A stretch of 7,566 bases of DNA, from IMG/VR virus record IMGVR_UViG_2698536559_000017, one strand, 5' to 3'. The notes under the pieces are model-generated. The model saw nothing but the letters and a program-made list of their open reading frames with translations. It was not told the origin of the DNA and searched no databases. This document shows, one piece after another, positions 3,210 through 3,438 of the stretch (positions within the stretch are counted from its first letter, which is position 1; every line of letters starts with the position of its first letter). The stretch is from a virus (taxonomy: Duplodnaviria; Heunggongvirae; Uroviricota; Caudoviricetes). Both the position numbers and the translations under genes were made by a program.

Positions 3210-3438
3210 TGTTCACCACTGTTCACCCTGTCAAAAACATCTTTTATATCAGTATATTACAGGGTGAACAGTTATTTATGAACTGTTCACCAAACTATTC
3301 ACCGTTCACCTTTTTGATTATTTATTGAGCTTTAAGGGTGAACAGTGGTGAACAGTTGGTGAATAGTTTTTGTGAAACTGTTCACCCCTTAACATTATGA
3401 ATAAAAAGGGAAAATCGCAAAAGGTGAACAGGTGAAGG
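3210..3438. repeat. iteron array (ori/crr-like): 8 perfect and 4 degenerate copies of the octamer TGTTCACC/GGTGAACA in both orientations, interspersed with AT-rich stretches
   Basis: Perfect TGTTCACC at 3210, 3220, 3284, 3379. Perfect GGTGAACA at 3263, 3337, 3347, 3423. Degenerate copies at 3296, 3303, 3358, 3431. 3210..3229 and 3335..3354 are perfect 20-bp inverted copies of each other. AT-rich blocks lie at 3231..3260, 3311..3335, 3395..3420 and 3440..3470. Confidence 0.85.

Follow-up and report, generated by a model that had tools for sequence, protein, structure and literature searches.

The closest described systems are the replication origins of Gram-negative PICIs, of the SaPIs and of phage P4. 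The origin of a Gram-negative PICI lies immediately 3' of rep and consists of iteron sets placed around AT-rich DNA, and a pri-rep-ori segment of EcCICFT073 has been shown experimentally to drive plasmid replication (PMC6092414); the supplements of that paper do not give the iteron sequences. For the SaPIs it has been modelled that the winged-helix domains of Rep bind iterons just 3' of rep, which flank an AT-rich region, two or more to a side and in opposite orientations, and two self-loaded Rep hexamers have been proposed (PMC9371898). In P4 the octamer TGTTCACC is annotated as the 'ori type 1 repeat' (GenBank NC_001609); ori (9310-9413) has six copies of it, and crr, a region annotated as required in cis for replication that lies directly after the alpha gene, has ten.

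We have found that the window (the whole stretch of DNA that was analysed, 7,566 bp long) contains an array of the same octamer starting 15 bp past the stop codon (3193-3195) of a rep gene. Judging from its sequence, the array is very probably the replication origin of an E. coli PICI and provides the sites for the helicase-initiator encoded just upstream. We hold with good confidence the fuller reading, in which a Gram-negative PICI origin has twelve predicted Rep sites in two inverted modules and works by the scheme of binding, melting and loading proposed below. The features are collected in Table 1.

Table 1. Features of the origin region and of neighbouring genes, in positions of the window
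Feature	Position	Strand	Description
YlcI/YnfO-family gene with adjoining AT-rich stretch	58-470	- (gene)	gene points away from the gene string that runs from the Icd-like gene to rep; AT-rich stretch at about 390-470
Rep	1363-3195	+	610 aa from GTG 1363; RefSeq relatives begin at ATG 1378
Rep origin-binding domain, predicted octamer reader	2866-3156	+	aa 502-598; phmmer against PDB 1KA8, E=1e-24
Candidate specificity segment of Rep	3085-3117	+	aa 575-585, MKRKTKHGLRS; sequence and length shift with octamer class
Module A	3210-3310	+	six sites: 3210>, 3220>, 3263<, 3284>, 3296}, 3303}; start-to-start 10-43-21-12-7
Module B	3337-3438	-	six sites: 3337<, 3347<, 3358{, 3379>, 3423<, 3431(; spacing 10-11-21-44-8
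Perfect TGTTCACC octamers in the array	3210, 3220, 3263, 3284, 3337, 3347, 3379, 3423	+, +, -, +, -, -, +, -	exact-match search
One-mismatch copies of TGTTCACC in the array	3296, 3303, 3358	+, +, -
Two-mismatch copy of TGTTCACC	3431-3438	-	GGTGAAGG
AT-rich spacer A	3228-3262		74% AT; between converging octamers; candidate melting site
Central AT-rich spacer	3311-3336		81% AT; separates modules A and B
AT-rich spacer B	3387-3422		72% AT; module B counterpart of spacer A
AT-rich right flank	3439-3470		81% AT; in part conserved across genera (TTAAA...TTTTTTAATTTTAT)
95-bp tandem duplication	3512-3701		follows the origin closely; copies 100% and 99% identical
SSB	4121-4564		downstream of the origin
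ProQ/FinO-family RNA-binding protein	4621-5145		downstream of the origin
PerC-family regulator	5142-5414		downstream of the origin

An earlier note, made from the letters of the window, had counted eight perfect and four degenerate octamers in both orientations and had thought it unlikely that their frequency would prove no higher than chance. Both points hold: the degenerate copies comprise three with one mismatch and one with two, and the window carries 11 exact copies of TGTTCACC as against 0.34 expected from dinucleotide-preserving shuffles, a number that none of 200 shuffles attained. Eight of the 11 fall inside 3210-3430, and the site with two mismatches is a perfect octamer in aligned related arrays. 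The same note had described 3210-3229 and 3335-3354 as exact reverse complements whose starts lie 125 bp apart, which is correct, and the perfect inverted repeat in fact extends to 23 bp (3207-3229 / 3335-3357). The array as a whole is two inverted copies of one six-site module and reads > 10 > 43 < 21 > 12 } 7 } 34 < 10 < 11 { 21 > 44 < 8 (, where > and < denote perfect sites on the plus and minus strands, } and { sites with one mismatch, ( a site with two mismatches, and the numbers start-to-start distances in bp. No perfect DnaA box and no IHF consensus were found in the array, and near-matches to the DnaA-box consensus occur across the window at the level expected by chance.

Three isolated perfect octamers lie beyond the array, at 1917-1924 (+), 2622-2629 (-) and 5228-5235 (-), where ~0.3 would be expected; two are within rep and one is within perC. 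Those at 1917 and 5228 are also present in E. coli EC12, and all three are absent from more distant relatives, which suggests that they owe their presence to chance or hitch-hiking. As single copies missing from those relatives, they were rejected as a second origin.

Each half of the array has a counterpart in P4. Read in the direction of the alpha gene, P4 ori1 is > 10 > 43 < 22 > 11 > 10 >, and read on the other strand it is < 10 < 11 < 22 > 43 < 10 <. Module A has this layout in the same orientation relative to its rep gene (10-43-21-12-7 as against 10-43-22-11-10), and module B is collinear with P4 ori1 on the P4 plus strand (10-11-22-43-10) and with the P4 crr units read in the sense of alpha. 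The crr units, of 120 bp each, are looser copies of the module in the orientation of module B. In a multiple alignment, nine sequences proved collinear, namely P4 ori1, the two crr units, the two modules of the window, the two modules of LR881103 and the two clusters of a P4-like element of Erwinia rhapontici (L026; CP159261). P4 thus shares with the window the identical octamer, the six-site spacing of ori1, present in each half of our array, and a homologous, ~50% identical binding domain (1KA8); it differs in that ori1 and a tandem pair of crr units lie ~4.7 kb apart, whereas the window has two abutting inverted modules, and in that alpha carries the domains Zn_Ribbon_Prim and Toprim_3, neither of which is present in the window's Rep.

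The earlier note had held that a single array could not be assigned as ori-like or crr-like. We find that the question can be answered: the array occupies the position of crr, its left half resembles ori1 and its right half is the same arrangement inverted. A search for a second iteron cluster, which the note had proposed, was run on the whole island that contains the window, and no second octamer cluster was found there, in EC12, or within 6 kb on either side in 22 of 23 related genome loci; the bipartite arrangement of an ori and a distant crr is confined here to P4 and L026, each of which has two clusters. Because both halves have the ori1 layout and no second cluster accompanies them, we regard the array as one self-contained compound origin of the PICI type, complete as it stands, and not as half of a P4-like pair.

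Comparison with related elements, also proposed in the earlier note, covered 23 genome loci that encode relatives of Rep, together with the phage record LR881103 and E. coli EC12. The 23 loci come from Raoultella, Kluyvera, Klebsiella, Citrobacter, Enterobacter, Serratia, Rahnella, Erwinia, Pantoea and other genera. The array lies directly after the rep stop codon in all of them except L026, and likewise in LR881103 and EC12. The layout is kept across 24 related loci and six octamers: the spacing of about 10, 43-48, 21, 11 and 8, followed by 10, 11, 21, 44 and 8, is largely preserved even where the octamer is TGTCTACC, TCTCCACC, TGTCCGCC, TGTCCACC or TATCTACC. Among eight non-redundant arrays of the TGTTCACC class, drawn from several genera, octamer columns show 90% pairwise identity and spacer columns 61%, with the reservation that these columns are not independent of one another. 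A full-text literature search for TGTTCACC returned only unrelated primer matches.

A relative with a tested origin is EcCICFT073, which we located in the CFT073 genome. It has the gene order of the window's island (int, alpA, Icd-like, DUF4222, rep, ori, small gene, ssb, perC) and its origin has a nearly identical layout, > 9 > 48 < 20 > 11 } 9 } 33 { 11 { 68 { 9 <, although its octamers are TGTCTACC and TATCTACC instead of TGTTCACC and its Rep is only 48% identical to that of the window. The window's island further differs from it in carrying a ProQ/FinO gene and in having no annotated capsid gene. As in the Gram-negative PICI origins described so far, the array of the window is immediately 3' of the initiator gene and its iterons flank AT-rich DNA. 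The reading of the octamers as the iterons of a replication origin, which the earlier note had put forward, is thus supported by the identity of the octamer with the P4 type 1 repeat next to a gene for a P4-alpha-type domain, by a position and layout kept in 24 related loci that include the validated EcCICFT073 origin, and by the co-variation of the octamer with a short segment of the binding domain, to which we now turn.

Close relatives of Rep fall into at least six iteron specificity classes, those of TGTTCACC, TGTCTACC, TCTCCACC, TGTCCGCC, TGTCCACC and TATCTACC. When 27 C-terminal domains of Rep were aligned by octamer class, the class tracked one hypervariable segment, sometimes with an insertion of 4-5 aa, in a domain that is otherwise well conserved. 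In the class of the window the segment (aa 575-585) reads KRKT-----KHGLRSN; in the TGTCTACC class it is KR.(C/R)T(K/R)(G/N)PDKGR...N, in the TGTCCGCC class KKAESKKKATRGRIQSN and in the TCTCCACC class R(K/R)KST----KG(N/H)MRSN. The pairing of octamer and segment, as read from these sequences, does not simply follow phylogeny: the binding domains of P4 and L026 are only ~50% identical to that of the window, yet both elements have its type of segment and its octamer, while one relative (L007), whose Rep is 77% identical overall to that of the window, differs in both. That the octamer co-varies with a protein domain, and that its direct copies are conserved as well, points to recognition by protein. 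The variable segment may be the wing of a winged helix; the predicted structure of the C-terminal domain (pLDDT 37) is too poor to place it.

Rep itself combines a helicase and a putative origin-binding domain on one polypeptide. Pfam recognises D5_N, an SF3 helicase core (DUF5906) and a C-terminal Pox_D5, with a weak PPV_E1_C match within the helicase core, and the core also matches SaPI5 PriRep (7OLA, E=3e-10), a match that is confined to it. P4 alpha is 51% identical to Rep over aa 150-600, and the domain predicted to read the octamers (Table 1) corresponds to the origin-binding domain of alpha, which is the domain in PDB 1KA8. P4 alpha reportedly binds the type 1 octamers through its C-terminal domain. 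With the type 1 iteron and an alpha-type C-terminal origin-binding domain, the locus therefore has these hallmarks of a P4-type replicon.

The N-terminal part of Rep is less readily placed. We could recognise no zinc-ribbon or Toprim primase domain in Rep (Pfam, with the N-terminus searched at E<=1), though RefSeq names it 'DNA primase family protein'. The first 150 residues have no Pfam match, and their only matches are to PHROG families 2850 and 864. For aa 6-166, a single-sequence AlphaFold model (pLDDT 63) resembles a generic alpha/beta fold, and a Foldseek comparison of that model with the PDB returned generic Rossmann-like matches only, the best at E=7e-3. We note that the relatives L012-L025 align to the window's Rep only from about residue 84-157 on, and that Pfam found no primase domain in L013 and L021, the two that were run through it. 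Priming by host DnaG and priming by the N-terminal domain of Rep are both possibilities.

The earlier note had pointed to AT-rich tracts between the octamers that could serve as unwinding elements, and their composition is as described: the spacers are 72-81% AT in a window that is 50% AT overall, and they include its least stable DNA. In a nearest-neighbour stability scan, the least stable 31-mer of the whole window (3232-3262) lies inside spacer A, and five of the ten least stable segments fall in or beside the array. Spacer A has an AT fraction of at least 0.66 in all eight cross-genus arrays, and spacer B of at least 0.69 in all relatives compared. Within the array, conservation is lowest in the central spacer (pairwise identity 0.47), whose AT fraction falls to 0.50 in one relative. 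We note that another AT-rich stretch, at about 390-470, between the YlcI/YnfO gene and the gene string from which it points away, accounts for two of the window's three least stable segments and probably represents the divergent control region of the island.

By analogy with P4 alpha and SaPI Rep, we propose that after induction of the island Rep would bind the octamers through its C-terminal domains, each module holding approximately one hexamer's worth of binding domains and enclosing a 35-bp AT-rich spacer, although to equate six sites with one hexamer may be numerology. The AT-rich spacers would then melt, and two SF3-type hexamers could load themselves in opposite orientations and unwind outward. 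A second cis element of the crr type would not be required, because both module orientations are already adjacent. Bidirectional firing and looping, both suggested in the earlier note, are inferences. As with the SaPIs, the origin lies immediately downstream of rep, oppositely oriented iterons flank AT-rich DNA, with at least two opposed iterons about it in each half (> > [AT] < in module A and > [AT] < ( in module B), and helicase and C-terminal DNA-binding domain are joined in one protein (PMC9371898). The differences are that SaPI iterons are penta- or hexanucleotides (5-6 nt) whereas those of the window are octamers, that the SaPIs have one central AT-rich region whereas the window has three AT-rich spacers and two six-site modules, and that the C-terminal domain of the window's Rep matches P4 alpha and not the winged helix of SaPI Rep. 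A looser parallel is offered by viral SF3 initiators. At the origins of papillomaviruses and SV40, inverted sites for E1 or large T antigen beside AT-rich DNA nucleate two hexamers. The window shares with them inverted-repeat sites next to AT-rich DNA, and its Rep the weak PPV_E1_C match; the DNA-binding domain, C-terminal in Rep, is unrelated in fold and position and the sites are not homologous, so that this is an analogy only.

Other readings of the array have to be weighed against that of a complete PICI origin. Its place immediately 3' of an alpha homologue is exactly that of crr in P4, and module B can be aligned with the P4 crr units, as would be expected if the array were a P4-style crr that works only with another origin several kb distant, by way of Rep-mediated looping. 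No such second cluster is present in the island, in EC12 or near 22 of the 23 loci, however, and the sole exception, L026, has a long alpha of the P4 type that includes a primase domain; module A, moreover, has the complete layout of P4 ori1, and the rep-ori segment of EcCICFT073 is reported to be sufficient for replication by itself (PMC6092414). We therefore consider a crr-like role extremely unlikely. The strand of the array also folds far better on its own than shuffled sequences do (z = -7.0), which might suggest a structured element (a cruciform, an RNA hairpin or an attenuator) in which the octamers are incidental. Such a fold is an automatic consequence of inverted octamer copies, and for that reason we do not count it in favour of this reading; a search of Rfam with the array gave zero matches, there is no terminator with a T-run, and octamers in direct orientation are conserved too and change together with a protein domain. 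That the array is essentially a structural element is scarcely credible.

A further alternative is that the array serves chiefly as a transcriptional operator or roadblock, at which Rep bound to the octamers controls read-through into ssb-proQ-perC or the expression of rep. Initiators of iteron-type replicons frequently autoregulate, and the genes on either side of the array are co-oriented, with nothing resembling a terminator after rep; neither promoter-like nor terminator-like sites exceed the number expected by chance. Against this, the array is downstream of rep and away from its promoter, its layout is homologous to that of P4 ori1 and of a functionally tested PICI origin, and its AT-rich spacers are kept in composition and not in sequence. 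A primarily regulatory array is in our judgement highly improbable, but the co-oriented gene string and the lack of a terminator-like site mean that it may also act on transcription, with a secondary role in the control of read-through. It might also be argued that the island has ceased to replicate and that the array, though a genuine origin sequence, is now a fossil, since a frameshifted gene adjoins the array and the island contains truncated BRO/Ant fragments. Given these pseudogenes the island could be partly defective. Nevertheless, rep has an intact reading frame and none of the twelve sites is missing. Of the 674 E. coli genomes with this origin allele, most conserve the array at 93-100%, and the octamers are better conserved than the spacers across genera. 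These observations make a fossil very unlikely.

The reading of the array as a working PICI origin places it in a known class, as an origin 3' of rep in PICIs has already been described, and our findings do not overturn current understanding. What they add is that the array consists of two inverted modules of the P4 ori1 type, that the P4 crr units are themselves copies of this module, that the layout survives switches of octamer specificity, and that Rep contains a candidate specificity segment. With the sites, the layout and this probable segment in hand, origin-specificity classes of PICIs may be predictable from sequence. The equivalence of the modules with P4 ori1 and crr also offers a simple structural rationale for the two distant elements of P4. 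It is possible, though we advance this tentatively and think it rather unlikely, that the compact origin is the unsplit form of the bipartite ori/crr of P4 and that P4 alpha and PICI Rep may recognise each other's origins. Since one module oriented like ori1 and one oriented like crr are adjacent in the window, the need of P4 for crr would then reflect looping that rebuilds this inverted assembly of two modules, and cross-recognition is suggested by the shared octamer and the same type of binding-domain segment. If this were true, two families of phage satellites that share a host could cross-activate or interfere with each other.

Two of the relatives deserve separate mention. The record LR881103.1 (L001), entered as 'Escherichia phage vB_KppS-Ant', is a 16.5-kb 'induced prophage' that carries int, a Rep 74.5% identical to that of the window and the same two-module origin, followed by genes for a capsid, a portal and a head-tail connector; it appears to be a capsid-forming satellite of the PICI type rather than a complete phage. 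In the Erwinia element L026, alpha is 792 aa long and has zinc ribbon, Toprim, D5_N, SF3 and Pox_D5 domains, and two separated TGTTCACC clusters (3052-3144 and 9508-9610) flank the alpha gene. As it is the only relative with so split an arrangement and its alpha bears a primase, split origins go together with a primase-bearing alpha in this sample.

A chromosomal island of E. coli 2015C-4136CT1 (NZ_CP027550.1, L027), located between thiM and rcnR, contains the window in identical form, save that a 95-bp repeat differs in copy number. The island is ~17.5 kb long, within the about 10-18 kb expected of a Gram-negative PICI, and has the int and AlpA genes and the rightward, unidirectional gene arrangement of these elements. 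Its order of integrase, DUF6387, AlpA (PF05930, E=5e-16), the divergent YlcI/YnfO gene, Icd-like, DUF4222, Rep, array, small gene, SSB, ProQ/FinO, PerC and further genes fits the organisation described by Fillol-Salom et al. 2018 (PMC6092414). The island has neither a full set of phage morphogenesis genes nor an annotated capsid gene, and the P4 satellite genes sid, delta, psu and epsilon are absent from its RefSeq annotation and from the Pfam, PHROG and NCBIfam matches of the window's open reading frames. A second PerC gene is found farther along the island. The 95-bp unit is present once in EC12, inside an intact 81-aa gene, twice in the window and three times in NZ_CP027550.1, where the gene is annotated as frameshifted; the repeat is therefore variable in copy number and disrupts a small conserved gene.

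The array locates the cis-acting origin of an island that is very common in E. coli and carries PerC-type regulators: the origin allele is found in 674 of 5,426 complete E. coli genomes, O157:H7 strains included. We also note that 2015C-4136CT1 has four places that match the whole window, one of which matches this origin allele, and that other E. coli genomes have up to six copies of the origin region. Related islands therefore co-reside in one genome, sometimes with the same origin allele.
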